Positions 3,009 through 62,902 of a stretch of DNA of 64,000 bases are shown piece after piece; the stretch's first letter is position 1, and each line of letters opens with the position of its first letter. The stretch lies in the NCBI GenBank assembly GCA_963769205.1, contig CAVYKR010000004.1:34592-98591 (forward strand), written 5' to 3'. The notes beneath the pieces were generated by a model. The model saw only the letters and a program-made list of their open reading frames with translations, made no database searches and was not told the origin of the DNA. Source of the DNA: Bryobacterales bacterium (lineage in GTDB: Bacteria > Acidobacteriota > Terriglobia > Bryobacterales > Bryobacteraceae). The position numbers and the translations under genes were made by a program.

Positions 3009-4157
3009 TTAGCGCACGCCGATAGTCTTCGAGTGAACCGCCGGCTCGACTACCGCCGCGACCGACGTTTTTGAACGCTCGGCTGCGATCTTTGGAATCG
3101 TAAAGGAAAACGTCGATCCTGTGTCCGGCTTGGAATCCATCCAAATTCTTCCGCCGTTCCGTTCTACAACTGCTTTGCATGTTGCTAAACCGATTCCGCT
3201 GCCCTCGTATTCCTCCCCGCTGTGAAGCCGTTTGAACAAGCCGAAGATTTCGTCGGCGTGCTTCATGTCGATTCCGATGCCGTTGTCCTTAACCTGGAAG
3301 ATCCATTCCTTTGCGTTCTCCACCGCGGTGATCAGGATTTCAGGCTGTCGGCTCCCGCGATACTTGATCGCATTGGTGATCAGATTGGAAAAGACCTGAG
3401 CCAGGCGATCGCCGTTCGCTTGAACCACCGGTAGCTCATCGAAGGTTATAACGGCATTCTCGGCATCGATCATGTAATGCAGATTTTGTATGACTTGCTG
3501 CAGCACCGTGTGAGAGTTGCACGCAGCCCGGTCTTGCATATCGGAGCTAGCGCCGGCATAGTCCAACAAACCTTTAATCATCGATTCCATCCGTTTAACC
3601 CCACTGACGATAACGTGGGCATACTGTTTGGAATCGCTGTCCATAGTGTCGTTATTCCGCCGAACCAGCAGTGTCGCCATCGTCCCAATGTTTCGCAGTG
3701 GCGCTTGCAGGTCGTGGGAAACCCCATATGCGAATCTTTGCAGCTCTTCATTGGAACGCGACAATGCCTCGCTGCGCTGTGACAGCTCTTGGTTGGCCAG
3801 TACAAGTTGGGCTCTGGCCGCGACCAGTTTGGCGTTCGTACGATGCAGTAACTGCAAGACGCCGCTGATTGCTACGCCGAGCACCGCGAACAGCGCCAAA
3901 CTGGACTGGGATCGCGCTAGTAGGAAGACTGACTCTTGGAACAGCCAGCCCACCATGACCACGCTAAGAAACGTCGTAAGAAGACCTGCCCAAAGACCGC
4001 TATACGCGGCCGACACTACCACGGCGATGGTGAAAAAGGTTAGCGGGGCTTTGCCCCCGAATATAGGCTGGACCAAAAACGTTAGCAATGTCGCAATTCC
4101 GACCAAAATTATGGACGATACAAAATGCCTGATTGATCGGGGCACACGAGTAAGCAT
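3009..4157 (-). CDS. membrane sensor histidine kinase (HisKA + HATPase_c)
   Basis: There is an N-terminal TM region, an H-box (FAYGVSHDLQAPLRNI), an N-box (SNLITNAIKY) and a G-box (DNGIGID...GSGIGLA). Confidence 0.8.
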   Translation of the reverse strand: MLTRVPRSIRHFVSSIILVGIATLLTFLVQPIFGGKAPLTFFTIAVVVSAAYSGLWAGLLTTFLSVVMVGWLFQESVFLLARSQSSLALFAVLGVAISGVLQLLHRTNAKLVAARAQLVLANQELSQRSEALSRSNEELQRFAYGVSHDLQAPLRNIGTMATLLVRRNNDTMDSDSKQYAHVIVSGVKRMESMIKGLLDYAGASSDMQDRAACNSHTVLQQVIQNLHYMIDAENAVITFDELPVVQANGDRLAQVFSNLITNAIKYRGSRQPEILITAVENAKEWIFQVKDNGIGIDMKHADEIFGLFKRLHSGEEYEGSGIGLATCKAVVERNGGRIWMDSKPDTGSTFSFTIPKIAAERSKTSVAAVVEPAVHSKTIGVR

Positions 4158-4225
4158 TTATACTATGATCGCATTCCGAGCGGAGCGTGGCTCACATTGG
4201 TGATCTGCGCTACTGAGCGCGTCTT

Positions 4226-5365
4226 TCAATTCGTCGGCGGGCTGCTCGCGTACCCCCGCCAGATATATTCCAGAGCTTCCGGCAGCGTCTGTTGCTTCAC
4301 CGCGCGATCGGTATGGCCGGCATTGCGCGCAAATACAAACTGATAGTGATATCCCTTGGCGGCCAGCACTTTCGCCATGTTCTCGTTGGCGGCCACCCAG
4401 TCGTGCATGTTGTCGTGCATGACATTCGGATTGTAAAGGTCCCGGTCGCCAACCTCCATCCAGATCCGCAGCGGCTTGACCGGCGTATTAGGGATGAGGT
4501 GTTCGTGAAACTCCCACGCACCGTGGGGAGCCTCTGGATTTGAAGGCCACTGCTGGTTGACATAGGTGCCCGAGTATGTGAGAACGCGATGGTAAAGCTC
4601 GGGATGGTACCACGCCATGATCAAGGCGCATGAGCCGCCGGAACTGCCGCCCATTGTCGCCCGCCCCTCGGGATCTTTGGTAAGTTTCACGTTGTATTGC
4701 TTCTCCACCATAGGCAGCACTTCTTTCTCGACGAACTCCGCGTACCGGCCAGACATGGTGTCGTATTCCAGGCCGCGTTCGCTTCCCTGTGCATCGCCGC
4801 TGCCGTTGCCTATGGAAATCGCAATCATCGCGGGTACCCGGTGCTGGGCGATCAGGTTATCGAGAACCGTGAACAATAACGGGTCAGGTCCGTCTGCCCC
4901 GACAATGAATGGCGCGGCCGTGCCGGGGACGTATTGTTTCGGGACATACACAGCCACGCGCCGGGTATAAGATGCTGGATGGCTGGTGGTGACGACCAAC
5001 TTAGCCGGGTCGGACGGGTCTGCCGTGCCAAACGTGTTGGTCTCGCGTGCGATGCCGGGATAAATTTTGCTATCGGCCGATTCCATGTTGAAGGTTAAGA
5101 CCGCTCCTTGCGGCACGCCTTCCTGGACCGTCATCTCCGGTGCGGGATTGTGCGTCGGGCCGATGATGAAGTTTCCGTCGGAGTTGACAGGAGCGTTGGC
5201 GCCGTCCGCTAAGTCTTTCGCTGCGACATAGCCAGGCGTGTTGGGATCGCGGGTCGGCGGCGTCGGACGTGCCGGGCGCGAGATGGCGGCCGGAGCTTGA
5301 GCCATTGCCGGATGTAAGCCAACGATCAGGCCGATTAAGAGCGCGATGCTACGAGGACGAGGCAT
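4226..5365 (-). CDS. secreted esterase (putative esterase / enterochelin-esterase-like alpha/beta hydrolase)
   Basis: It has a signal peptide, a GGSSGG nucleophile-elbow-like motif and an overall esterase D-like layout. The start is close to the upstream genes. Confidence 0.7.
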   Translation of the reverse strand: MPRPRSIALLIGLIVGLHPAMAQAPAAISRPARPTPPTRDPNTPGYVAAKDLADGANAPVNSDGNFIIGPTHNPAPEMTVQEGVPQGAVLTFNMESADSKIYPGIARETNTFGTADPSDPAKLVVTTSHPASYTRRVAVYVPKQYVPGTAAPFIVGADGPDPLLFTVLDNLIAQHRVPAMIAISIGNGSGDAQGSERGLEYDTMSGRYAEFVEKEVLPMVEKQYNVKLTKDPEGRATMGGSSGGSCALIMAWYHPELYHRVLTYSGTYVNQQWPSNPEAPHGAWEFHEHLIPNTPVKPLRIWMEVGDRDLYNPNVMHDNMHDWVAANENMAKVLAAKGYHYQFVFARNAGHTDRAVKQQTLPEALEYIWRGYASSPPTN

Positions 5366-5456
5366 TTTGAAAATTTTATCACTACTCTCACGATTTAACC
5401 CGCAAATGAGAAGTTTTGATGCGATTTACCTACGCATTAAAATGGCCGCGCCGACT

Positions 5457-6798
5457 CTACAGCCTCTCCAGCCGCTCCCGGGCATCGCCAAACTGCTCCA
5501 GCTTCACGCCGAAACGATCCATCAGCGACAGGTACAGGCTGCACATCTTGCGTTTGTCCTCGCCCGCATCCAGATAGTTCAGCGTCCGTCCGGTTTCGAG
5601 CGTCCCGCCCAGTCCGCCGGCCAGCACCAGCGGCAATCTGAAATTGTCGTGCTTGCGGCCGATCCAGAGATTCGAAAGGAACATCAGGCAGGTATTGTCG
5701 AGCACCGTGCCATCGCCTTCCTTCATGCTGTCCAGCTTCGACGCCAGGTAGGCGTACTGGCTCACATGGAAGCGGGCGATGCGTTCGTATCCATCCGAGT
5801 TGTTGTTGTGCGACGCGGCATGATGCCCGTCCTTAACGTCCAGGAACGGATAATACATGGCCGAAAGATCGCGGGAGATGATCAGCGACGCGACGCGCGT
5901 CTTGTTAGTCTGAAATGCGATGGCGATGATGTCGCACATCAGGCGGGCGTGCTCGCGCAGGTCTTCCGGCAGTCCATTCGCCGGCCGGTCCATCGTGGCT
6001 GCTATCGTATTCTTCGCCTTGGCCGCAGTCGTCGGCCTGGTCTTTGCTTTTGCGCATCCCCTCGACGCGTTTTTCCACTTCGCGCACGCTGGTGAGATAC
6101 TCATCCAGCTTGCTCTTGTCGCCCGAGCTGATCTTGCGGTTCAGTTCTTCGGCGCGATCTTTCACGCGGTCGAGCAGACTCGAATTCAGCAGGCTGCCGC
6201 GGTTGTCGAACAGGTTGTCCCACGCCAGCGAAGGATAAACTTCCACCGGGACCGGCGAATCCGGAGTCTGCCAGGAGATATGCGAACTGTAGGCCAGCGA
6301 GAAGTTGGTCTCGTGATAGCCCGTCATGGGCTGATCGCATGCCAGCACGATGCTGGATTGCGGCGTATCTTCGCCGACGCGGTTGGCGATCATCTGATCC
6401 ACGCTGATGCCCGAGTGGATGATGGCGCCTTTGGAAATGTGCGCGCCCGACAGCAGGCTGCCCGTTTGCGCGGGGTGAATGCCCTGGCCGGTCAGCGCCT
6501 TGACGTACAGCCCATCGATCACATTGATTTTCTGTTTCAACGGCTCCAGCGGCTGCAGCGTCTTGCTGAGCTTCATCGCGGCGCCCGCGCCCTCGGCGCT
6601 CCAATGGTCTTCGTTGATGCCGCATCCCAGGAAAACGACGCCGAACCGTTTCGGGAACGCCGCCGGAGTGGCTGTATCGGCGAAAGCATCTAGCGACTCA
6701 AGCCACGGCAATGCCATGGTGCAGCCCATCCCCGCGAAGCACGGTGCGGCGGGAAAGGCGGGGTGCGTGGTTTTTGCTCGATGGGGCATCTTAATCAC
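5457..6798 (-). pseudogene. DUF1501 family protein with a frameshift
   Basis: ORFs 5905-6798 and 5457-6104 together match the N- and C-halves of the intact DUF1501 protein at 37258-38589 (KLDEYLTSVREVEKRVE... then ...DLREHARLMCDIIAIAFQTNKTRVASL). The frame switches near 6040-6080. Confidence 0.65.
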
Positions 6799-9700
6799 CT
6801 TCTTGATTGTAGCTCGGGCCGTTTCGCGCGTAAGTCAGGAACCCGCGTGTTCAGAAACTGCGGGCTTGTGACGATGGTCTCCACCAGCGCATCAAAGCGA
6901 TAATCTTCGGCCTGTAGCTTGGTCTTCATCCGTTCAATCACCGCTTCGTCGGAAAGCTGGAGCGAACGGTTCAGTGCATACGCGAGCAACTTACGGCTGA
7001 GATTATCCACGAAGTCGGCCTGGCGATGCTCGCGGATATAAGTCTCGACGCCCTCCACTCCCGGCGCCTTGGCTGCCGCCCGGAAAGACGGCCTTCGTAT
7101 CCACCGGCCGCCCTGCCAGATCATTGGTCCGCGCCTCGCCCACTGGTCCGTAGCCTTCAAACGCCAGACCGAACACGTCAAACCGCGCATGACAGCCAGC
7201 GCACACCGGATTCGAACGGTGCTTGGCCAGCATGTCGCGGAGCGGCAAGTCCGACTTCGCTTCGTCTGCCGGCAGTTCGGGAACGACCGGCGGCGGTGGA
7301 GGGATAATCTCGCCGAGAACCCGGTGGACTACCCAGTATCCTCGCTTTACCGGACTTGTTCTAAGGCCGGGCGAGTTTTGCGTGAGAAAGACCGCCATGG
7401 GTAGCAAGCCGCCGCGGCCGTACTTGTCGGCATCGTCCACGCGGACCCAAGTATCAGTGGTCCCCAGCCACGTCCGGCATCCCATAATGCTTCGCCAGGG
7501 CCGGATTCACAAACGTGTATTTGCCATACAGCATGTCGAGCACGGAGCGATCGTTGCGGACCATGTCCTCGATGAAACCGGACTGGTTCCTGAAACATGG
7601 CCTCGCGCAAATCGTTATTGAACGTGGGAAAGCGCTCCCGATCGACGGTGTTGTTGGTCTCGAAATGCCGGAAATCGAGCCAATTGCCCGCGAATTCCGT
7701 AGCCAGTCCGCGCGCTCGCGTCATCCTGCAGCATCCGCCGGGTTTCGCGCCAGCAATACATCTCGCTTTTCGAGATCGCCCGCGGCCGCGTGCCGCAACA
7801 GCTCGTCGTCGGGCATGCTGGACCATAGAAAATAGCTCAACCTGTTTGCCAGAGCGTAAGAAGATACCGGCCGGCTGGGGACCGCCGAAGAAAGTTTCGC
7901 CCCGGAGAATTTCGCCGCGTGATGGATAGACGATCCAGAGTGCTGTAACCCCGCGTCCAGAAGATCGATCCGGTACAGGAAATCGGGCGACATGAGCACG
8001 CCGGCAATCGATTCCCGCATGGCGTCTTCATGCGACAGGCCGTTCTTTTCTCGAAGGCGGTGGTAATACGTCACCACTTCGTCGCGATCGGCTTTTGTAA
8101 GCGGTCTCCGATAGGCGCGCGCGGCGAACCGCAGCAGCGCATCCAGATGCTTTGGCTCGGCCTCCGCATGCTCCTTCTCCAAGGCCCGCAAGGTGGCGTT
8201 GACGCCATCGAAGTGCGCCGCGGATTGCATCCGGAGCGACCGGGATCGTTCTGCGGATCAGCCAGAGCCTTGTCCAGATAGGCGTCCTTCAAGCCCATGA
8301 TGACCGGCTGGTCGGTGATCTCATGATCCAGCGGCCGCGCCGTGCCGGATTCAGCGCCCTTCCCTTGAACCTCGCCGCTCTGGTTAAAGAAATACTGAAT
8401 CCAGGTGCGAGCCGTGTAAGCCGGCGATGTAGTCGAATTCATTCCACAGGCGGTTGAGTTCCTTCTGGCCCTTTTCGTCGAGGATCAACTCCATGAGCGG
8501 CGTATCGTCGCGGAAATAACCCATGGTGTTGTGATAGCTCGCGCTTAGCAGACGTCCCTTGTCCTCCGAATCGTCCGGGAAATAACGGCCGCGCTCCTGT
8601 GACATAAAAAGTGTCCGGGAAAACCGAAGCAAAACGTGCAAACGCGGCTTCGTAGCGGCTTGCGCTCGGCGGCCGGCACCACCAGATCGGGATCGTCCGC
8701 GCGGGCTTTGGCCGAGAGAGCAGCCCAGCGCGGAGCGGCTTCCTGGTGGAGCCCCGGATACTCGGGATTTCGGGCACAACCGGCGGCGGATCGGTATCGT
8801 TCCGCAGATCCTTGCGGATCGCTATCGCGGCGATGCGAAGCGAACTCGCGCAGCTTCCAGTCCAGCAGGGCCTGCGATCCGGGCGGCAATCCCTTTACCA
8901 CCGGCGCGGCGAACTGCATGGCCGTGTGACTGCGGATCTTGACCACGAAATCGCGCATCTCGATGCATTTCGCTCTGCAGCCCGTCCTCCCCGCCTGAGC
9001 CCGGCGCCGGAAGTTCGCGCCACATCCGCTGCAGTTTCGCGATGGGACCAACCGCATCTTTCTCTTGCAGAATCCGCCACACCATCGGTAGATACTTGGC
9101 GCTGACCTTCGAATCCGCTGCGATGGACGCCAAGCTCGCCGCTGGCTTTCCCAGCGCGGCCCGATAACTGGAAGCGCCAGGCGGCCTGAAAATAATCCGC
9201 AAAATCGGTCGGCTGCCGGTGATAGAAGCTCACGATGCGCTGGATGGAATACTTGTCGCGATCCGTCTCCACCAGCATCGGATAGGCCGCGAAGTCGATT
9301 CCATCCGGGCGTCAGCACCATGTGATCCGCCACTCCGCGCGCGGCCTGCAGGTATTTATTCAGCAGCGCCGGACGACATCGTCAGCGATTCGCCGGAGTT
9401 GTCGAAGCCGGCCGTATTGGCCGGATCCACGGGAAACTCCCGCGCTGGGCTGCATATCCTGGCCGGTGAGGTCGCGAACGGTGTAGTCGTACTCGGCGTT
9501 GCTCAACCGGCGCGGCAGCACCAGTCCCGGATCGCCTGCACTTTTCCGCACCTCTTCCGCGCGTACGGCCTGAATCCAATCCATCACCTGCTCGCGGGCT
9601 TCCTCCGGCGGCGGCGGAACCGGCTTGGGAGGCATCTCCTTGCGCGGTCAGTCTCTCCAGCACCAGCGCCCAGCGCGGATAATCCCGGGTCACCATCTCC

Positions 9701-51574: not shown

Positions 51575-54389
51575 CTACGAGGACAGGGTCTTCCGAAGAC
51601 TCTGCACGAGATCACTTAACTGAAATGGCTTGCGAACAAAACCGCAGACTTGCGGAGCGCTCAATGTTGCTCTTACCATCTCTTCGCTGTACGCGCTGGT
51701 CAAGATTACCTTCACGTCCGGCCGGAGTCGCGCGGCCTCGGCGATTACCTCCCCGCTGGAGCGCCCAGGGAGGGTCATGTCCAGCAGAATCGCGTCAATT
51801 CTGTCACTATTTGCACAAAACAGATCGATTGCGGTAGTCCCATTCGCAGCTTCGAGTACCTCAAATCCCTTCATGCGCAGCATCTTCGCGACAGCTTGCC
51901 GAAGTGGATCTTCATCTTCCACAACCAGGATGGTGGCCTCCTGCGAGGGGCGAGCCGCCTGCTCGGCGCTGCGGATGTTGCCGGCGGCTGCTCCAACCCC
52001 GGCTTCGGAAGGCAGCAATATCTGAAATGTAGTGCCCTGACCTGGCTCGCTGACAAGATGGATCGCGCCACGGAGCTTCCGAACGTTCCCTTGGACCACG
52101 GCGAGTCCGAGGCCGCGGCCGGCAGCCTTGGTGGTGAAGAATGGGTCGAACATCCTGGTCTGGGTTTCCACCGGCATGCCGTCCCCAGTGTCGGAGACCG
52201 CCAGTTGCACATAATCACCCTCAGTCACACCTTTCGAGCACGCCGCATCCCGGCCCATGGTGACGCGCGCCGTGGTCAGCCGGATTACTCCATCTCGATC
52301 GCCGATCGCTTCAGACGCGTTCGTGACGAGGTTCATAACGATTTGACGAATTTGCGCGCCATTGGCCCGGACGGCCGGAAGATCCTCCAGATCGGTTTCT
52401 ATTACAGCGCGCTTAGACACTGAAACCTTGAGCAATTCAAGCATGTCCTGGACGGTCCACGAGACGTCAACCAGTTCGACACCTGCATCCTCTTTTCCCG
52501 CATAGATCATCAACTGACGAACGATTTCCGAGCCGCGGAGGGACGCGTTTCGGATCCTCTCCAGTTCTTCTTCGGGAGATGATCCAGCGGCACACTCCGC
52601 CAGCGCCACATCTGCTTGAGCAAGCACGGCACCCAAAAGGTTGTTGAAATCGTGAGCAATTCCGTTCGCTAGTGTTCCCAGAGTCTCCAGCTTCTGCCTG
52701 GCAAAGGACTCTTCCTGCGCTCGTCTAAGATCTGTGATGTCCTGAGCGGCGCCAAACATCCGTACGGTCCCGCCCTCCTCATCCAGCACTACCTCGGATA
52801 CGGACTTCACGATCCGGACATCACCGTCAGGCCGGCCAATCCGATATTCGATCGAGGTTCCATTCTTCCCGGCAAGACGTTCTCTTTGCGCTCGCTCGAC
52901 CAACTCTCTGTCTGGTGGAAGGACCGCGTTGAGAAACTCTTCGTAACTGGGTTGGAAATCCAGCGGGCGCCCGAAGATTCGAAAACATTCTTCGGACCAG
53001 ATTACTTGCTTGCTCTTCGCGTCCCAGCTCCAATGACCCAAATGCGCGAGGCGTTCCGCACTCTTTAGCCGCCCTTCGCTTTCGCGCAAAAGCTCCCCGG
53101 CCGTCACCTGCTCGGTAATGTCCTGGCTTGCTCCCACGACTCGAACCGCCAGGCCTTGACCATTTCTTAGCGCTTCGAACACGGAGTGAACAAACCGAAC
53201 TTCGCCATCGGGTCGGAGGATGCGGTAATGCACATCTCCAGGTCCACCGGTCGTACGGACTTGGCGATCGACTTCCAAGACCTTTTCCCGATCTTTCGGA
53301 TGGACACGGTCGATGAAGGTAGAGAAGTTTGCCGGTGCATCATTCGAGCACACCCAAAATCCGGCGGTTCTCATCCGACCATTGACTGATAGCAGTGTCA
53401 ATGCGTCGCTCCCAACTTCCGACTTTGGCGAGCCGCTGCGCGTCTTGGAGCTGGATCTGGCTAGTCCGCAGCCTCTCTTCTCTATCCTTCAGCGCGGCTT
53501 CGGCTCGTTTGCGCTCGGTGATATCGTGAACCGATCCAACCAGATGCGTACAATTCCCTTTGTTGTCAAATAAGGGTACAACGCTGACTTCGCCAGTCAA
53601 CCGCCCGGCTGGGTAATCCGACGTTTCTTCCCAAACCACGGTAGTGTTTTCTTCGATCGCCTGCCGGTACTTTCCGAGGGCCATGGTAAGGGACGGCTCC
53701 GGGATGACCTCGTTCACCGTTTTGCCGATCACCGCTTCCCGGCTCAGTCCGGTGACTCTCAGAAAAGCCGCGTTGACAGAAACGAAGCGGAATCGACCTT
53801 CGGGTTCGACAGCCAGGTGGAAAATGACATCCCGGACGGTGTCGTAAATCGAGACCAGTTGCTGTTCGCTTTCGCGCAAGGCTTCGGCGGTCTCTTCCAA
53901 TGTGAGGTTCGCCTTCGATACCCGGTCGATGGTGGCACGGAGGTCGAAAACGTTTCTTTGGGCATCGCTGGCGATCCGGCTGCCGATCATGGCAAAGACC
54001 AGCAGGTTCAGGTCTACGAAGAATATCGAATCGTATGTTGTGGAACTGCGCACGTGCGGTATGGCTCGGGTGAGGCCTTGCTTTTCGGCGATCCCCAGCG
54101 CCGCCACCGCCACCAGGACCATGCCTGCAGTGATCATATAAGAGGCCCGATCCAGCAACATCACAGAAAGCAACAGCATGCCTGGGAACACGAGCATCGC
54201 GAGACTGCGGAATCCATCACGCGCTTCAAAAACCAGCAGCATTGCGGTCAACAGCACGGCCAAGAAGGCGGTCCGCGCCGCCCATTCCCAGTTCCCTGCG
54301 CGATTCATTACCATGGCCGCGACCAAGCCCGCCGCGGCGAAAACCAGTATCGGTGTTTCTGCCGACGGCTCCCCGCTAATGACATTCAA
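51575..54389 (-). CDS. hybrid sensor histidine kinase (membrane N-terminus, PAS domains, HisKA, HATPase_c, C-terminal receiver) with one frameshift
   Basis: ORF 53340-54389 covers TM + PAS. ORF 51575-53401 covers PAS, the H-box HDFNNLLGAV, HATPase, and REC (ILVVEDEDPLR...LLDMTLPG). The junction is inside a PAS WSDE..RIFG motif near 53390. Confidence 0.75.
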
Positions 54390-55616: not shown

Positions 55617-56346
55617 TTAGAGGCAACCACCACGACCGCCGCCGATGTGCAATCTGCGATTTCCTAAAAAACGCCCGATGAGTGCTCCTAAGATCACTGT
55701 GGCGATGATCGCTGCTCCGTGCGCTCCCAGCGCATGCCAGGGGGTCGAAAACGGGCATGCAATGCGCCAACCGGCATTGATCGCGAGACCCGCGCCTGCG
55801 CCATAGAGGGCACCCGCTACAGTTGGCCGGGTCGCGAGCGAGTTTCGAAACACCCAACTGAAGAACAGGACCAGGATTCCCCCGGCTAGCGTGCTGCCGA
55901 TCCCGCAGGCGAGGCCCATGATCCATGGCGAGACACGCAGGGTTTCGTTGATCCATGGCGGGACGGGCAGGGTTGCGGTCCCAGGACTAGTCGAGAAGGT
56001 TAGCAGGGTGACAAATACGACAACCAAAGATGCCGCGACCGCCGCGGAGTAAACCATCTGCCTCGGCAGCCTGCCAGCCGGTGTGCTTTCGTGCGCGGCG
56101 ATCCAGACGAGCGCGATCGCCAACACGAACTGCGCGGCGGAGGCGCCCCACGTCAAGAGCGGTCCTAATATCCCTGAGTCCTGACGGGGGCCGATAGCCA
56201 GCAGAATCACCGACGAAACCAGGAGAGCGAGAGGGACCATTCGCAACGCCAGGTGGAGCGGTTGCGGCGAAGGTCTGACGGGTTTGAGATCCTGGGCGAT
56301 CGCCCGCAGTCAGCGCTTCCGGTGGCTTCGGTGAACGATCCATCAT
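55617..56346 (-). CDS. putative anti-sigma factor, NrsF/DUF1109-like 6-TM membrane protein; N-terminal frameshift
   Basis: The start ATGATGGAT overlaps the sigma stop by 4 nt. The frame switches near 56295, then ORF 55617-56246 is the multi-TM body. Confidence 0.5.
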
Positions 56347-56897
56347 GCACGAGCCCTTTGAAGACTGTTCAGCGCCACGCGCAGGTCTGCCATTCCCCGG
56401 CTGGCGCGCGCGCGAGCCGCCGCGGCACTAATGCCCAGCATCCCGGCGATCTCCTCGAAACTGAACCCCCACTCATGGTGCAGCAGCAGCGCTTCGGCCT
56501 GATCCGGGGGTAAATGCGCAATACCTCTGCGGATCTCGTCCTGAGAGCCGAGCCTGTCGGCTTCCGGAAGCACGGGGAATTCAGGCAAATCCTCGCGCGA
56601 CTCATGAACCTTTGCCCATCGCCGGGCCGCACGCCGATTCATCAGAAAAACGTTTCGCGCCAAACCGAACACCCAGGGTCTAACCGCATATGTCGGGTTG
56701 TATGCGGCTCTCGACCGGTGCATTTGAAGAAACGTTTCCTGAAGCAGATCATCGGCGATTTCGGAGCCGCCTGCCAAATGCGACAGATACCGGCGCACTC
56801 CCGGCGCGAGCTGCGCGTAGATCTCCTGAAATGCTTCCAGTGATCCGCCCTGATAGCGGATCATCAGGGCGCGAAGTTCCTGATCTCCTTCGCTCAC
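56343..56897 (-). CDS. ECF (sigma-70 family, group 4) RNA polymerase sigma factor
   Basis: It has region 2 (DDLLQETFLQMHR) and a region 4 HTH (ALLLHHEWGFSFEEIAGMLGIS). Confidence 0.8.
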   Translation of the reverse strand: MSEGDQELRALMIRYQGGSLEAFQEIYAQLAPGVRRYLSHLAGGSEIADDLLQETFLQMHRSRAAYNPTYAVRPWVFGLARNVFLMNRRAARRWAKVHESREDLPEFPVLPEADRLGSQDEIRRGIAHLPPDQAEALLLHHEWGFSFEEIAGMLGISAAAARARASRGMADLRVALNSLQRARA

Positions 56898-57047: not shown

Positions 57048-57461
57048 ATGAAACTACTCTTCCCCCTGCTTATGTCTGTGCTTCCGGTGGCATCCGTGCT
57101 GGCGCAAACCCAGGGCTCACCCCAGCCGCCTTCCGGCGCGCCATCACCTAAGACCACCGAAGTGATGGTCATCCTGACTGTCAAACAGGGAGTGACTCGT
57201 CAGCAGATCATGCAAATCATGCCGGACGAGATTCGGGCAACGGTGAAGCTCTATCTCGACGGTAAGATTCGCCAGTGGTACTCAAGGGGCGACGGCCGAG
57301 GCGTGATTCTTTTTCTGGACGTGAAGACCGTGGACGAAGCCCACGCCGTCATGGACACGCTGCCGCTGTCGAAAGAGAACCTGATGGACCACGAGTACAT
57401 TCCCGTCGGTCCGCTCATGCCGCTCGGTGCCTTGATTGGCGGTGGGCCGGCTCGGCAATAA
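57048..57461 (+). CDS. small secreted protein, muconolactone-isomerase-like/Dabb-type fold
   Basis: It has a signal peptide, then ...GKIRQWYSRGDGRGVILFLDVKTVDEAHAVMDTLPLSKENLMDHEYIPVGPL, which parallels the MLI family pattern. Confidence 0.45.
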   Translation: MKLLFPLLMSVLPVASVLAQTQGSPQPPSGAPSPKTTEVMVILTVKQGVTRQQIMQIMPDEIRATVKLYLDGKIRQWYSRGDGRGVILFLDVKTVDEAHAVMDTLPLSKENLMDHEYIPVGPLMPLGALIGGGPARQ

Positions 57462-57471
57462 AGGATCGATC

Positions 57472-57977
57472 ATGCCATTTCCAGCTTTGTTCGGAATCAG
57501 CGTAGCGTTCGGCTTGGCTGTTTGGGGAGCAGTGGCGTGGCACTATATTTGGCCAGCGCTAAAAGAACGCCCCAGCCCCGAGAACCTGAAGCCCATCCTA
57601 CTGCTGCATGGGTTCAGGTTCCTCGGATTGGCATTTGTGGTGCCGGGTGTTGTGTCTCCAGAGTTACCTGCGGCATTTGCTCAACCAGTAGCTTACGGTG
57701 ATCTCATAACCGCCCTTCTGGCTTTGCTCGCTCTGGCTACCCTGGGAACCCGTGCTGGGACAGTGGTGACCTGGGTTTTCAATACCTTCGGAACGGCGGA
57801 CCTGCTCTTCGGCTTTTTACCAGGGAGCCCGCATATCACTCCCAGATACGCAAGGCTTGTTAGGCGCTGGTTATTTTATCCTGACTGCCTACGTGCCTCT
57901 TCTTCTCATAACGCATGGCTTGGCGTTTCGAATACTGCTGCGAACGAAGGTTGTCGCCCCGTCCCGCAGCAAACTGA
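57472..57977 (+). CDS. membrane protein of unknown function, C-terminus frameshifted
   Basis: It starts MPFPALFGISVAFGLAVWGAV and has 4 predicted TM helices. The last helix continues in another frame (GAGYFILTAYVPLLLITHGLAF) after ~57840. Confidence 0.4.
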
Positions 57978-57999
57978 GTACCGCTTGAGGTTACGCCGT

Positions 58000-58533
58000 C
58001 TACTTGGGTTCGTCGGATTTCAGAATCCGCAACACTGAGAGGATTGTGCTCCAACTGCGCGTGGTCGCCCGCGCCCCAAAGAGCCTGTCGATCTGGCCGA
58101 GACAGCCAATTGTTTTCATGTGGCGGCGGTACACCCCATACACGAGACGATTCTTCGAGCCAATGATTCGCACCAGCCAGTCCCCACCTTCGGGAAGAGC
58201 AACAGGAAGAGAAACTCTGCGGCGGCCAGCCTCCGACAGGATGCTTACAAACCGAACAACATCTGCCGGCGGTGGCTCAGTTCCAAACGGATTGTCCAGC
58301 GCTAGTCGAATCAGGTCACGGCCGTCGCAAGAGGCGATGGTTGCTTCAAACGGCAGCTTCCGGCGCAACTCGGCCAGGAACTTTGCGCGCAACCCAGGTT
58401 TGCGAATGACAAGCGTGCCCGCGGCGCCCACGTTCACGGCATCGTAGACGCCCAGTTCTTTGGCGAGCACGCTCGGACGAAAAGCCCTGTGTCCTCCGAC
58501 GTTGATGCCCCGGAAGAAAACAATCAAAGCCAT
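58000..58533 (-). CDS. DUF1697 family protein
   Basis: It reads MALIVFFRGINVGGHR...VNVGAAGTLVI..., the typical DUF1697 N-terminus. Confidence 0.6.
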   Translation of the reverse strand: MALIVFFRGINVGGHRAFRPSVLAKELGVYDAVNVGAAGTLVIRKPGLRAKFLAELRRKLPFEATIASCDGRDLIRLALDNPFGTEPPPADVVRFVSILSEAGRRRVSLPVALPEGGDWLVRIIGSKNRLVYGVYRRHMKTIGCLGQIDRLFGARATTRSWSTILSVLRILKSDEPK

Positions 58534-58593: not shown

Positions 58594-59802
58594 TTACTCG
58601 TCGCCGGATTTGCGTTGGGCTTGGTCGGCATCCGCAGCCAAGTCCTTTAGCAGCTCGGTAAACTCCGGCGTCTGGCCGATGAAGAGTCCGTCACTCGTGA
58701 GAGCGTTGGCTGCTCCCATCGCAATGCCCTTGGTCCCGGTTGGACGAATAATTGAACAAAGCGGGAAGCTGCGGCTTAGGAATGGGCATGGCTCGGGCAT
58801 GATGAGGTTGGCTTGCAACGTTTCCGGCTGGCCGAAGTGGAGGTCGAAGAACGTAACATCTGAGTTGTTTATCGGATCATGGACCGTAAACGGCGGATTG
58901 GCTGGGGGCCCATTCGGGTTTGTGTTCGCATTCCCGGCTTTGTCTTGCCAAGTCTGAAAGTGCATGGTCTCAGTTGGACCGATACTGAGAAGGATTCTCA
59001 ATACTTCCGGGTCGCTTACTCTCTGAGCAAGCCCCGGATAGAGGCTGGTGCCACCTTGCTCAATAAAGCAAAAGTGGAAGCCCGCCGTGAAGGCGATCGC
59101 ATTGATCAAGTTAGCGTTGTTCGCATCAGCATCGTTTCTGGGAATTGCCGTATGCTTCCCGATGTTCAAACTCGGGACTGCTTGAGCGAATGAGGTATCA
59201 CCGAGATCGGGGTTCTCATTGTTGGAGCGATACCGGCCCCAAAAACTCGTATCCACGGTGAGCTGGGTGAGATTGGTCAGCCGGCCTTTCTTAGTTGACC
59301 CGGTTGCCACGCTACCTGGTAACGTGCGGAAATGCGGGCCGACAAGAAGATCAAGCTCTGCCGTGTTAGCCCCTTTCGACTTCAGGTACGCAAGCAGGAA
59401 GTTTGCGTGACTGAATTCATCATCGGTATTGTCGTTAATGTACTGGGGCATGTCGCCATCCAGGATCTCGAGAGCGGTGGTGTACGGTGCGTTCCCTCCG
59501 GTGGGAGTTGGCTTAGTGCCGGTTGCCGGATTAGCAGCTTCGAAACCGCTGGTGACCGCCGGACCTGAAATAAGTTCCCAGTATTGTTCCCAGAGATCAC
59601 TTTCGAGGATTTCGGCTGCGGCCACGAACCGCAGAATTGCGGCATCGCCGGTACTGAGCTTGCCGGGCGGGTCACCGAACGCTGGTTGGGAATTGGACAG
59701 GAGTCCGGCACCGACACCGGCCGTGCCTACTGCCGCCAGTCCTCTTTGGATGAAAGAGCGCCGGTCGGTTGCACGCTTGATACGATTCGTTAAATCTTTC
59801 AT
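58594..59802 (-). CDS. Tat-exported ferritin-like domain protein
   Basis: It has a Tat signal (DRRSFIQRGLAAVGTAGVGAGL) and Ferritin_2-like AAAEILESDLWEQY / TETMHFQTW helices. Confidence 0.6.
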   Translation of the reverse strand: MKDLTNRIKRATDRRSFIQRGLAAVGTAGVGAGLLSNSQPAFGDPPGKLSTGDAAILRFVAAAEILESDLWEQYWELISGPAVTSGFEAANPATGTKPTPTGGNAPYTTALEILDGDMPQYINDNTDDEFSHANFLLAYLKSKGANTAELDLLVGPHFRTLPGSVATGSTKKGRLTNLTQLTVDTSFWGRYRSNNENPDLGDTSFAQAVPSLNIGKHTAIPRNDADANNANLINAIAFTAGFHFCFIEQGGTSLYPGLAQRVSDPEVLRILLSIGPTETMHFQTWQDKAGNANTNPNGPPANPPFTVHDPINNSDVTFFDLHFGQPETLQANLIMPEPCPFLSRSFPLCSIIRPTGTKGIAMGAANALTSDGLFIGQTPEFTELLKDLAADADQAQRKSGDE

Positions 59803-60006
59803 ACGTTCCCTCCTATTTATAGGTCACAAAGTGACAATTGATCGGAAAAGAGCCTTGTGCTCGACTGATCGTAAACCGGATAGGGAGGAATGTCTGTAGG
59901 AATGCGGCTAAATCTTGGTAAATGAATTGTAAAAAGGCGTTTGAAATAGCTGCTGCCGGTTAACCCGCGCAAAGCGGGAGTAAACTACAGTACGGAAACG
60001 GCACTT

Positions 60007-61119
60007 ATGAGCGACGGCGAGCCTCAGGCTTTTTTCTCATACAGCCGCAGCGACTCACCTTTCGTCACTCGCTTGGCGGCCGACCTTAAGGCAGCCGGCG
60101 TCAGCGCCTGGCTGGATACGCGAGACATCGCACCGGGACACGAGTGGGACCGAGCGATCGAAGCCGCCCTCGCCAAAATCCCTCGCATGATTTTGATTCT
60201 GTCGCCGGCTTCGGCGGCGTCTCGAAACGTACGTGATGAAATCTCGTTCGCAATCGATTCCGGCAAAGAAATATATCCGGTGCTGTACGGAACTTGTGAA
60301 TTGCCTCTTCAGGTTCGCCGGCTGCAGTATGTGGATTTTCGCGACGACTACGAAGCCGGCCGCGCCACTCTGATAGCGAAACTGACCGGCGCCGGCGCGC
60401 CGACCCGCGAATCGCCTGTCGCGGTTCGCCGCCGCTGGCCGTTTGTGGCCGCCGCTCTCAGCCTCTTAGCCATCGCTGTGCTGTTCTGGGTACTGCGGCC
60501 AAAGCCGGTTGTTCGACAATCGGCCAGGTTGCTCGAGTCCACAGAAGTGCAGTCTTCGAGCACGGCGCCTGGGACCGCCGAAGCCGGCCTGCGGCTCGAA
60601 ATTCAGAATATGAAGCAGGCAACGCCGATCCTTGCGCCGAATCAGCCTCGCTGGAACGGCGAGCCGATCTGGTGCGAGACTGCTGTTTTTGACTTATTGG
60701 TCGCGCATAATCGCGCTGCCCCCGATGCGCTACTGGTTAACGATCTGGGTATCCGCACAGAAGCAGTTGCCGCCAAGCCTCCGGATCCTGTCGATTGTTC
60801 CATTGACACGCTCAACAGCAAACCCTTTGGCATCGTGGTGGTCAATCAATACTCATTCGATCTTTCGGCTGCCGGATTGTCGGGCCGCTTCATCAAATCG
60901 GGCCGCGTGGGAGACGCAAGCCCTGTAAATCCCGACAGCCTGCTTCAGGTGGGCGGCGAAAAACTTGCCATCACGCTTCAGCCGAACGAAACGGCTACGC
61001 CTTTCAACATCTCAGTTCATACCCGCGCGCCAGGCTTGTATCGCGTCTGGTTCACCGCGGCCTATGACGAATCCGGCCCTCGCAGAGCCAAATCTCAATC
61101 CTTCCTGCTCGCAAAGTGA
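60007..61119 (+). CDS. TIR-domain membrane protein: cytoplasmic N-terminal TIR (TIR_2-like), one TM helix, about 205-aa extracytoplasmic C-terminal domain
   Basis: The TIR region reads FFSYSRSDSPFVTRLAADLKAAGVSAWLDTRDIAPGHEWDRAIEAALAKIPRMILILSPASAASRNVRDEISFA...IYPVL. The TM helix is WPFVAAALSLLAIAVLFWVL. The C-terminal domain is beta-rich and matches nothing I recognise. Confidence 0.8.
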   Translation: MSDGEPQAFFSYSRSDSPFVTRLAADLKAAGVSAWLDTRDIAPGHEWDRAIEAALAKIPRMILILSPASAASRNVRDEISFAIDSGKEIYPVLYGTCELPLQVRRLQYVDFRDDYEAGRATLIAKLTGAGAPTRESPVAVRRRWPFVAAALSLLAIAVLFWVLRPKPVVRQSARLLESTEVQSSSTAPGTAEAGLRLEIQNMKQATPILAPNQPRWNGEPIWCETAVFDLLVAHNRAAPDALLVNDLGIRTEAVAAKPPDPVDCSIDTLNSKPFGIVVVNQYSFDLSAAGLSGRFIKSGRVGDASPVNPDSLLQVGGEKLAITLQPNETATPFNISVHTRAPGLYRVWFTAAYDESGPRRAKSQSFLLAK

Positions 61120-61137
61120 GAGAGAAATGAGGCAACT

Positions 61138-62902
61138 ATGCCGCGACAAGTTCATCAATCCATTTTTCCAGCCGCACTGGTTTTAGCATGTGCCGGGTCG
61201 CTATGCGGCCAGCAGGAGCTTACCGGTTCCGACTATCTCCGGTGGTACCAAGCCAAATATCTTTCGGGCCAGGGCGTGTCGTACACGCCGGAAGAACTTC
61301 TGCCGGTGATGCAGGACAAGCAGAAGCACGCCTATGCAAATGTAATTCGCGAGACGACGGAGTTGATTAATCGGGATGCTAAGTCGTTTTACAGCCCTCC
61401 CTATGTCAACTGGGTGAAGTCGCTGGCCTATATCGAAAGAGGAGCTGCTAAAGCTGCACTCAGCGGAAAGCCCGAAGACGATGCGCCGGATCTCGCCGAG
61501 GCCGGCAAACTCGGTAATTTGCGGGCGGCGACGACTCTAAGCTCGCGTCTTTTCGAGAAGATGAACGCGGGTTCGGGAGACGCGGCGGCGCGCGTGAATT
61601 TGGATGACTTAGTGAAATATTTGCGCATCGGGGCCGAATTGGGCGAGCCATGGTCTGCGGCGCACATCGTTCAAGTTCCGAAAAGCATGACGCTGGCGGA
61701 GGGAACGTACTGGACCCTGCTGAGTATCGGTAAGGACAGCGACCCGGATGCCGATTTCAGAAACCGCCTGGTCAACTGGCTGTATTCAAAAGTCGGCGCC
61801 GAGGGAGTTGAGAATGCTTTGAAGCAACTTTCTCCTCTGGGCGGCACGATCAAAGGCGGAGTGGTCTCCGGACTTCCCGGCCGCGGCGCGATGGCAACCG
61901 TTTATGGCGACGCCATTCTCAGACGGGAATACTCCTTCAACTATGGGAAGCGGCAGCCGAAGGAACATAACTCGGAGAGCCCCTCGACGCTGGAAGTGTT
62001 CAAGGCCGAGCGAGCAATCTGCCGACCTGGTCGGCCACGCTTCGGTCTATATGCTGGTACCCGGTTCCCGTAAGTTCAGTGACCCGGCGATTATTTCCGT
62101 CCCAGCGGCCCAAATCGCAACTTACATGAGTCCCAGCGACATGATCGTGGTCGGCTGCGGAGATCTCGTTCACATGGCTCGCATTTACCGCGTCGACCGG
62201 ACGGCCGGCACGGTTGATTTCGTCGATGGGCTGTTTGAATACTGGCAATCGAGCCACAATTCCTGCATTTCCAGCTTTCAGTTCGTTCCCTTTATTCATG
62301 GCGGTTACCTCATTCGGGTTCCACTGCGCGATGTGGCAGCGATCGTGCAGGCTGTGATGACGTTTCGTGATCGCGTGTTACCGCCACCCACGGGGAATGC
62401 CGGGCCGGCCGATGGCTACGTAACGCTGGCTGGATTCACTGCTTCGGAATTCTTCAAGGCTCGTAATATTCAGCAGGTAAACGTCGAGCCGTTGGATCGG
62501 GGCGAGCAACTGGTCCGTTACATGACGGGGGCCGACCAGGACAAGATCTTCATTAGCGTGCGAGTGGATCGGGCGTATCGAATCACCGAAGCTTTCATTA
62601 GCGTCGATAGAGACTGGCTCGGAGCGCTCGGCAAGTTCAACCCGGATGGCAGCGAGGTCGTGAAGTCGTTTATCGGCGCCGTAACTCCGAAGGCTTCAGT
62701 CGGGGCGGTACAGCCGTTAGTGCGGGCCCTTGGGAGCAAGACCCAACCCGATACTTCCGGCATCGGCGAATTGCTGCAGGTCTATGACGGAACCGGGCCC
62801 CATGCTTCGCTCGATCTTTCAACCGGCAAGCTCCTGCTGGAGAGCCTAAAAGAGAGTTCGGGCATTGTTCTGAAGGCGACCATGGAGACGAACGCGCGCT
62901 GA
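61138..62902 (+). CDS. secreted/periplasmic protein of unknown function (about 588 aa), one frameshift near 62020
   Basis: It has a signal peptide (MPRQVHQSIFPAALVLACAGSLCGQQ). ORFs 61138-62073 and 61904-62902 overlap. The N-terminal half is helical (possible Sel1/TPR-like). It starts 18 nt after the TIR gene. Confidence 0.55.

Follow-up and report, generated by a model that had tools for sequence, protein, structure and literature searches.

A membrane-tethered TIR protein with a predicted extracytoplasmic domain and a linked secreted Sel1-repeat partner in a Bryobacterales genome

The DNA considered here is a stretch of 64,000 nucleotides from a Bryobacterales bacterium (GenBank assembly GCA_963769205.1, contig CAVYKR010000004.1, positions 34,592 to 98,591 of the forward strand), referred to as the window and numbered from its first letter. 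Near its right end is a gene for a protein composed of an N-terminal TIR domain, a single transmembrane (TM) helix and a C-terminal domain that we term Y, and directly downstream of this TIR-TM-Y gene is a gene for a secreted partner protein (Table 1). Together these constitute a TIR effector of the sensor-fused kind whose other components belong to two protein families not described before, namely Y and a secreted protein that combines Sel1-like repeats with a domain marked by invariant Arg, His and Asp residues. The architecture is real, recurrent and suggestive, and from it we infer a function: that an outer domain and its partner have gained a TIR twice suggests, though it does not prove, that a TIR enzyme within the cell answers to what happens outside.

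The product of the TIR-TM-Y gene is 100% identical to a protein (P0001) encoded on a 274,777-bp contig (NCBI/JGI/ENA), and has full-length homologues at 80-89% identity (P0002-P0004). Its N-terminal region matches the Pfam TIR_2 profile (PF13676) with E=2.7e-27 and a score of 96.1 bits against a gathering cut-off of 28, spanning 120 of the 122 profile positions. PADLOC TIR models also match this region, up to 2e-17, the best of them being the SPARTA-type Aga_TIR, and the closest solved TIR domains by sequence are 4w8g (Hydra Toll-receptor-related 2, E=7e-8) and 7qqk (TIR-SAVED). Glu78, in the context SRNVRDEI, lies at what we take, from our own reading of the motif and not from a structure, to be the catalytic Glu position of the S-x-W-C-x-x-E-L motif of NAD+-cleaving TIR enzymes (TIR NADases), after beta-C. 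The Glu is kept in P0002-P0007 and P0014, is replaced by Asn in P0012 and P0013 (SRNVRNEV and SRNVRNEI), and aligns with the Glu in VRHEIA of a distant TIR-TM-Y protein encoded at locus L014. The window TIR is a member of the TIR_2 family with a catalytic-type Glu, and NADase activity is predicted for it.

Residues 144-163 form the only segment of the protein to exceed 1.6 on the Kyte-Doolittle scale. Lysine and arginine residues number 4 on each side of this helix, and the positive-inside rule gives no orientation. Placement of Y outside the cytoplasm is predicted because Y follows signal peptides in homologues, because it has a conserved Cys pair, and because the partner has a signal peptide; the TIR part, 143 residues with no signal peptide, is predicted to be cytoplasmic, in an N-in, type II topology. 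The informative homologues have three layouts, with Y behind a cleavable signal peptide and a CarboxypepD_reg domain (P0008, P0036, P0039 and P0048), behind a signal peptide and a helical region (P0042/L003), or behind a signal peptide and an alpha/beta hydrolase (L008/L009), and in the remaining members Y follows a signal-anchor helix. The two Cys are invariant in close homologues and nearly so over all 23 Y clusters. The fold of Y is recognised as a generic beta-sandwich only, immunoglobulin (Ig)-like, and no match to Y was found in Pfam, NCBIfam or PDB sequence searches. The linker between helix and Y is longer in P0002-P0004, which have insertions of 13-40 residues.

A preliminary description of this DNA, made from its letters and translations, had already called an N-terminal TIR_2 domain with a conserved Glu in NVRDEIS, a single TM helix, and a C-terminal domain outside the cytoplasm that belongs to no nameable family. 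All of these calls hold: the Pfam match places the N-terminal region in TIR_2 and not in a non-TIR family, Glu78 falls on the motif position and aligns with that of the distant L014 protein, one hydrophobic segment is present, homologues carry a signal peptide before Y, and the database searches with Y are negative.

Profile searches of all locus open reading frames (ORFs) place a Y gene directly upstream of a partner gene, on the same strand, in 11 of 11 independent DNA loci that have upstream sequence (the window, L001, L002, L003/4, L005-7/13, L008, L009, L010, L011, L014 and L017). The same order is present in two JGI contigs (12,654 bp and 9,875 bp) known from gene tables only, and none of the loci with upstream DNA departs from it; the spacers between the two genes are short in related loci too (4-50 nt). 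The loci derive from at least three phyla, including Acidobacteriota-like soil contigs, a Burkholderiales metagenome-assembled genome (MAG), another proteobacterial MAG and an Armatimonadota MAG. For the window, the neighbouring genes encode proteins that cluster with those of Bryobacteraceae. In contrast, no partner gene was found downstream of the genes for P0005-7, whose TIR-TM portion is 84% identical to that of the window and is joined to another ectodomain, nor likewise for P0014 (TIR-TM-X). Since every testable locus pairs Y with the partner while these TIR-TM-X proteins are without it, what is conserved is the pair of Y and partner, to which the TIR has been added. The preliminary description had paired the TIR protein with the secreted product and expected the two genes to be found together in homologous loci. 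Its layout of an inner TIR, a TM helix, an outer domain and a co-oriented gene for a secreted partner stands, and the Y-partner pair is together in every homologous locus that can be tested; the conserved partnership, however, is between Y and the partner, with the TIR optional.

The module is rare. Y is represented by 23 clusters in 5.8e9 proteins, and a genome scan recovered 3 loci in 3 species representatives among 185,579 genomes, a species-representative set of which the window's own genome is not a member. A metagenome scan with a narrower partner alignment gave 10 loci, and a tblastn search of plasmids with the partner gave no match.

The TIR-TM-Y arrangement recurs at L014, where a TIR_2 domain (E=1e-14), a TM helix and Y are followed by a short-form partner. 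The TIR domains of the window and L014 are 21% identical, and the Y domain of L014 falls among Y proteins that lack a TIR (58% to P0044/L005), while that of the window is in a separate clade, beside TIR-less and CarboxypepD_reg forms. Because the TIRs are so divergent and the Y domains are nested in different TIR-less clades, sequence comparison indicates that a TIR was fused to TM-Y twice, independently. At L008 and L009 the place of the TIR is taken by a DUF676/PGAP1-like alpha/beta hydrolase of lipase fold, which matches the Lamassu effector LmuA (7e-8).

Relatives of the window TIR at 52-61% identity are joined to quite different outer parts, with TM plus CHASE2 in P0012/13, TM plus a Ycf48-like BNR propeller in P0015, TM plus TPR in P0016 and a multi-pass membrane domain in P0018, and this TIR subfamily is habitually wired to extracytoplasmic domains. 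The presence of CHASE2, a bona fide sensor domain, on close relatives of the window TIR favours a receptor-like reading. As a separate observation, P0012, P0013, P0015, P0016 and P0018 have the appearance of a repertoire of membrane TIRs with swappable outer domains.

A structural model of the partner, built on P0024 from 10 sequences (pLDDT 78), suggests a signal peptide, Sel1-like repeats in the N-terminal third, a beta-rich domain and a C-terminal alpha/beta domain. The Sel1 assignment is made by both sequence and fold match, so that the unknown fold earlier ascribed to the partner is resolved for this third, the remainder being indeed without a named family. An HMMER scan of 1.84e9 representative proteins recovered 376 partner relatives, most of them ~400-430 aa in length and limited to the Sel1 region and the beta-rich domain. 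Across 63 diverse members three residues never vary (Arg251, His347 and Asp365 in P0024 numbering), and Asp336, Trp371 and Arg412 are almost always kept. Of the 7 sequences lacking one or both of Cys342 and Cys378, 5 lack both, whereas His347 and Asp365 are retained throughout; because both Cys vanish together in this way, the pattern fits a disulfide and not a nucleophile. A cysteine hydrolase of the papain-like, NlpC/P60 or transglutaminase-like type is rejected on the same joint loss and on the absence of any fold or family match, and with it the permuted NlpC/P60 or LRAT look of the partner motif PGDxVxVRCGxxxH...D...HNSC; a CHAP match (E=0.1) in 1 of the 63 members is noise. Family and fold searches with the central domain returned no structural or sequence relative. 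The C-terminal domain of ~170 aa also occurs as a widespread stand-alone family of ~175 aa (P0161-P0212), sometimes fused to TPR, with no Pfam or NCBIfam match and with a signal peptide missing in both members that were read.

The Cys residues of both proteins change in the Armatimonadota-type pairs (L010 8976-10966, and L017): neither conserved Cys remains in the partner (S/D) and the second Cys of Y is substituted (C to Y), so that the predicted disulfides are gone from both proteins in the same lineage.

The TIR-TM-Y protein does not belong to Thoeris, CBASS, Pycsar or SPARTA, since the partners and domains that define these systems are absent. The Thoeris ThsB_TIR model gives 15.5 bits on the window TIR, under its cut-off of 21.2, and the ThcB4 model of type III Thoeris gives 27 bits, far under 220. 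No ThsA-like gene (SIR2 or Macro/SLOG) was found among the window neighbours, no SAVED, STING, cNMP-binding, APAZ or Argonaute domain on the protein itself, and no cyclase, ThsA or prokaryotic Argonaute (pAgo) gene in its neighbourhood. A TIR_2-type domain with a catalytic-type Glu is nonetheless common to the window protein and to the effectors of these systems (TIR-SAVED and TIR-STING of CBASS, PycTIR of Pycsar, ThsB of Thoeris and TIR-APAZ of SPARTA), and sensor-driven oligomerisation would be the expected logic for it too. It is unlike them in that its sensor part is predicted to be outside, behind one TM helix, and in that the associated gene encodes a secreted Sel1 protein. To our knowledge, the trigger is intracellular in every bacterial TIR system characterised so far, be it a nucleotide second messenger, a phage protein or a nucleic acid. 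In the literature no account was found of a bacterial TIR that combines an extracytoplasmic domain with a secreted partner of its own, in keeping with the earlier statement that no characterised bacterial system has this layout.

TIR NADases need self-association to form their active sites, as in SARM1, AbTir, TIR-SAVED and TIR-STING, so that clustering would switch on NAD+ cleavage. We tentatively propose, at somewhat short of an even chance, that the module is an envelope sensor analogous to ExoR/ExoS that controls the clustering and NADase activity of the cytoplasmic TIR. The secreted partner, translated from the same transcript, would bind Y in the periplasm and set its oligomeric state. 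An envelope event, such as loss, cleavage or ligand-loading of the partner upon, for example, envelope damage or phage attack, would then cluster the single-pass receptors, bringing the TIR domains together and turning on the NADase, and depletion of NAD+ or a nucleotide signal would lead to growth arrest or death. The long and length-variable linker points to control by clustering rather than to a piston-like or rigid relay.

The best mechanistic precedent for the partner is the ExoR-ExoS/ChvI system (the RSI switch of Rhizobiales), in which ExoR, a secreted Sel1 protein, works on the periplasmic part of a membrane sensor that is released when ExoR is proteolysed (PMC4550343). The output of ExoS is a histidine kinase behind two TM helices, whereas here it is a TIR behind one, and ExoR consists of Sel1 repeats only (268 aa), whereas the window partner adds the beta-rich domain and, as often in its family, a C-terminal domain. 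Beyond the type of repeat the two secreted proteins have no sequence relationship; the partner has a signal peptide and Sel1 repeats, and its binding to Y is proposed by analogy. Antiphage activity has been described for TM-containing TIR systems of E. coli (PMC11350192), and comparative-genomic work on conflict systems has noted caspase-TM-CHASE2 proteins (Kaur et al. 2021, PMC8195603). The latter caspase/metacaspase proteins similarly tie a cytoplasmic death or conflict effector through TM helices to an outer domain, and relatives of the window TIR carry CHASE2 likewise; the effector in the window is by contrast a TIR, and Y and the secreted partner are undescribed families. LapD-LapG (PMC5231407) pairs a membrane receptor with a periplasmic protein of its own, which the receptor's periplasmic domain binds. 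It signals inside-out, from c-di-GMP to the periplasm, and LapG is a Cys-His-Asp protease, whereas the Cys pair of the partner is disulfide-like; no similarity to LapG was found.

There is also a resemblance to the interleukin-1 and Toll-like receptors (IL-1R/TLR), as the window protein would be single-pass, with an Ig-like domain (as in IL-1R) outside, a TIR in the cytosol, a soluble or accessory outer partner and a plausible dimerisation or clustering trigger. The chain order and topology are reversed, however: IL-1R/TLR are type I proteins with an N-terminal leucine-rich repeat or Ig ectodomain, a TM helix and a C-terminal TIR, whereas the window protein runs TIR-TM-ectodomain, and the resemblance is an analogy and not membership, with nothing to indicate that the architectures share an ancestry. 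A bolder proposal, which we regard as possible if on the unlikely side, is that these proteins form a genuine family of single-pass transmembrane TIR receptors, expanded in Acidobacteriota, in which a TIR-TM cassette with interchangeable ectodomains (the Ig-like Y with a secreted Sel1 co-receptor, CHASE2, a beta-propeller or TPR) reports outside events by clustering a cytoplasmic NADase. Cues could then include phage adsorption, envelope damage or a diffusible ligand, and transmembrane signalling of the IL-1R/TLR kind would have an equivalent in prokaryotes; bacterial TIR enzymes would be controllable from the envelope, permitting a response to phage or damage before genome entry. The transmembrane receptor already suggested in the preliminary description gains from the layout, the two TIR fusions and the CHASE2-bearing relatives, and loses in that the TIR is not the ancestral output of the module. 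In at least three phyla the genes for Y and its partner are strictly linked, and the TIR and lipase fusions offer the first functional handle on this pair.

Several observations weigh against an envelope sensor with a TIR output. Most Y proteins have just a short cytoplasmic tail of ~20 residues and a TM helix, and several carry periplasmic N-terminal domains (CarboxypepD_reg or alpha/beta hydrolase); the module clearly works without a cytoplasmic output in most organisms, and signalling to a TIR cannot be its ancestral job. The central domain of the partner, having no relatives, could be an enzyme unrelated to signalling, and the ~590-aa partner, although a reality in the family, is a reconstruction in the window, where the sequence as it stands is frameshifted. 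The defence context is anecdotal. It is present at L008 (Burkholderiales MAG; 3514-7747, minus strand), where QatA (PADLOC 1e-214) and a 1003-aa fusion of caspase-like and HamB-like helicase parts adjoin the hydrolase-Y and partner genes and where the surroundings are those of a defence island, and SduA_C and T1RH-like genes lie near the Y-partner pair of the 12,654-bp JGI contig. Elsewhere it is weak, since a PADLOC search of 41 genes around five other loci returned just three matches (AAA/IetA-type, HEAT and CARF, one each), and the window neighbours are non-defence genes (Ferritin_2, DUF1697, an extracytoplasmic function (ECF) sigma factor and an alpha/beta hydrolase).

Much of this would also be expected if Y and its partner were a housekeeping envelope module, an account that we consider fairly unlikely. 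The Arg/His/Asp domain would then be an enzyme, acting for example on peptidoglycan, exopolysaccharide or a surface protein, and held at the membrane or surface by Y as an Ig-like anchor. N-terminal additions would be accessory, and the TIR would be a non-catalytic oligomerisation or scaffold domain, or simply a tethered unrelated enzyme, and no signal would pass through the membrane. The predominance of Y proteins without a cytoplasmic domain, the CarboxypepD_reg-Y forms typical of secreted or surface proteins, the active-site-like constellation of invariant residues in the partner, and the metabolic and regulatory character of the window neighbourhood with sparse defence context elsewhere are all consistent with it. 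Two gains of a TIR, each with a catalytic-type Glu, together with the fusion of a lipase-like effector, are nevertheless hard to see as neutral accessories, the rarity and patchiness of the family are unusual for a housekeeping function, and gene neighbourhoods around the module are not conserved between loci.

The state of the partner gene in the window is a separate question. The preliminary description had placed a signal-peptide protein of ~590 aa 18 nt downstream of the TIR gene, in a single ORF from 61138 to 62902. The spacing is as described, the next gene starting at 61138 with a signal-peptide-like N-terminus, but the single ORF is not present: this interval is 1765 nt long and not divisible by 3, the frame opened at 61138 closes at 62073 (311 aa), and the ORF in the +1 frame ends at 62902. 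A search with the fused reconstruction gave 10 homologues, of which 8 are single proteins of 589-606 aa, the others being a 386-aa fragment and a 491-aa protein, and the homologues align gap-free over the junction FKAERAI/ADLVGHASVY. Alignment with the DNA of L021/L022, two contigs encoding an intact protein of 81% identity, shows one extra window column at ~62020, the junction reading GAGCGAGC-A-ATCTGCC against GAGCGAGC-GTTCGCG. A programmed +1 frameshift is rejected, there being no slippery or stop context, close homologues at 81-85% identity being single ORFs, and the splits seen in the partners of L002 and L012 falling at different positions.

Two other genes nearby have comparable breaks. 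A membrane protein gene at 57436 (plus strand) is 553 nt long in the window (57436-57988), with a frame change near 57813-57826 in runs of T5 and G3/C3, and is 552 nt (183 aa) long in an independent JGI contig of the same strain-level sequence, which has the identical TIR protein and neighbours of identical length. Any single-base deletion within 57770-57861 restores the 183-aa product (window 57436-58038); an exact look-up of eight repaired 183-aa versions found none of them, and the frameshift at this gene is derived from coordinate arithmetic. On the minus strand the PAS domain of a sensor-kinase-like gene is split over two frames at ~53340-53490, the ORF at 53340-54389 ending in WSDENRRILGVLE followed by a stop, and the PAS domain going on in the ORF at 51578-53488. 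The JGI contig stops before 62020, so that its comparison with the window does not reach the break in the partner. With three frame breaks within 10 kb, resembling assembly indels, the shift in the partner gene is most likely an assembly error.

That the partner is instead a true pseudogene, leaving the module non-functional or rewired in this genome, appears unlikely. In its favour, the change is a single inserted base outside a homopolymer, partners are also split at L002 and L012, and the public annotation holds a 311-aa fragment (P0065). The density of breaks in the region (57436-57988 and ~53.34-53.49 kb in addition to that in the partner) is nonetheless typical of assembly indels, both halves of the partner have gap-free, full-length similarity (85%) to intact homologues with no more lesions, and the split at L002, where coverage is 0.7, is likely an error as well.

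It is highly improbable that the module is a toxin or conflict system in which the variable N-terminal domains are toxins, Y a constant targeting or regulatory domain and the Sel1 protein an immunity, chaperone or processing factor: constant-plus-variable architecture with effector-type domains, the occurrence of Sel1/TPR folds among immunity proteins (with PA5087/PA5086 among the weak matches), an integrase and a SpvB/Tc-like fragment (the fragment identified by sequence reading only) near L009, and genes of an extracellular contractile injection system (eCIS) and IS21 near L005 would suit it, but the TIR precedes a signal-anchor helix and would stay in the cytoplasm of its producer without export, most members have no toxin domain, polymorphic toxins vary at the C-terminus and not the N-terminus, and no secretion-system genes are consistently linked.

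Table 1. Features of the TIR-TM-Y gene and the partner gene in the window
Feature	Position	Strand	Basis or remark
TIR-TM-Y membrane protein gene	60007..61119	+	intact ORF, 370 aa
TIR_2 domain, residues 9-122, predicted cytoplasmic	60031..60372	+	Pfam PF13676
Candidate catalytic Glu78 in NVRDEIS	60238-60240	+	motif reading
Transmembrane helix, residues 144-163, WPFVAAALSLLAIAVLFWVL	60436..60495	+	Kyte-Doolittle 19-residue maximum 2.49
Ser/Thr/Pro/Ala-rich flexible linker (putative periplasmic stalk)	60496..60576	+	length varies among close homologues
Domain Y, ~175 aa, always C-terminal, predicted extracytoplasmic	60577..61116	+	Ig-like beta-sandwich, C223 and C264 conserved
Intergenic spacer, 18 nt, Shine-Dalgarno GAGG at 61129-61132	61120..61137	+	sequence read
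Partner gene, 5' part, residues 1-294	61138..62019	+	signal peptide ~1-24, Sel1-like repeats, start of core (LPGRG motif)
Extra base (T), partner frame shifted +1	62020	+	protein and DNA alignment
Partner gene, 3' part, residues 295-587 and stop	62021..62902	+	frame of ORF 61904-62902
Novel beta-rich conserved domain of partner	to ~62383	+	invariant R/H/D constellation in 63 homologues
Optional C-terminal domain of partner, ~160 aa	~62426-62899	+	absent in 414-aa and 357-aa homologues

Upstream of the TIR-TM-Y gene and divergent from it is the Ferritin_2-like gene (58594-59802, minus strand), which encodes a 402-aa protein with a twin-arginine-type signal, RRSFIQRGLAAVG, the Tat-type RR being our own reading. 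The intergenic region between these divergent genes (59803-60006) exceeds its counterpart in the JGI contig by 2 nt (offset 55530 versus 55532), and a simple scan of it found no sigma-70-like promoter or terminator. The ECF sigma factor (Sigma70_r2/r4_2) and an adjacent NrsF-type anti-sigma membrane protein are encoded at 55617-56897 on the minus strand, 3-4 kb upstream of the TIR gene. In one TIR-less lineage of Y and partner, a gene for a 162-aa cNMP_binding protein precedes that of Y by ~500 bp (L002 3809-4297, and 1285-1773 of the 9,875-bp JGI contig). At L023 (1222-3714) two TIR genes lie within 2.5 kb, one for a soluble 274-aa TIR_2 protein and the other for P0007 (TIR-TM-X2), with an opposite-strand DnaB_C fragment between them.

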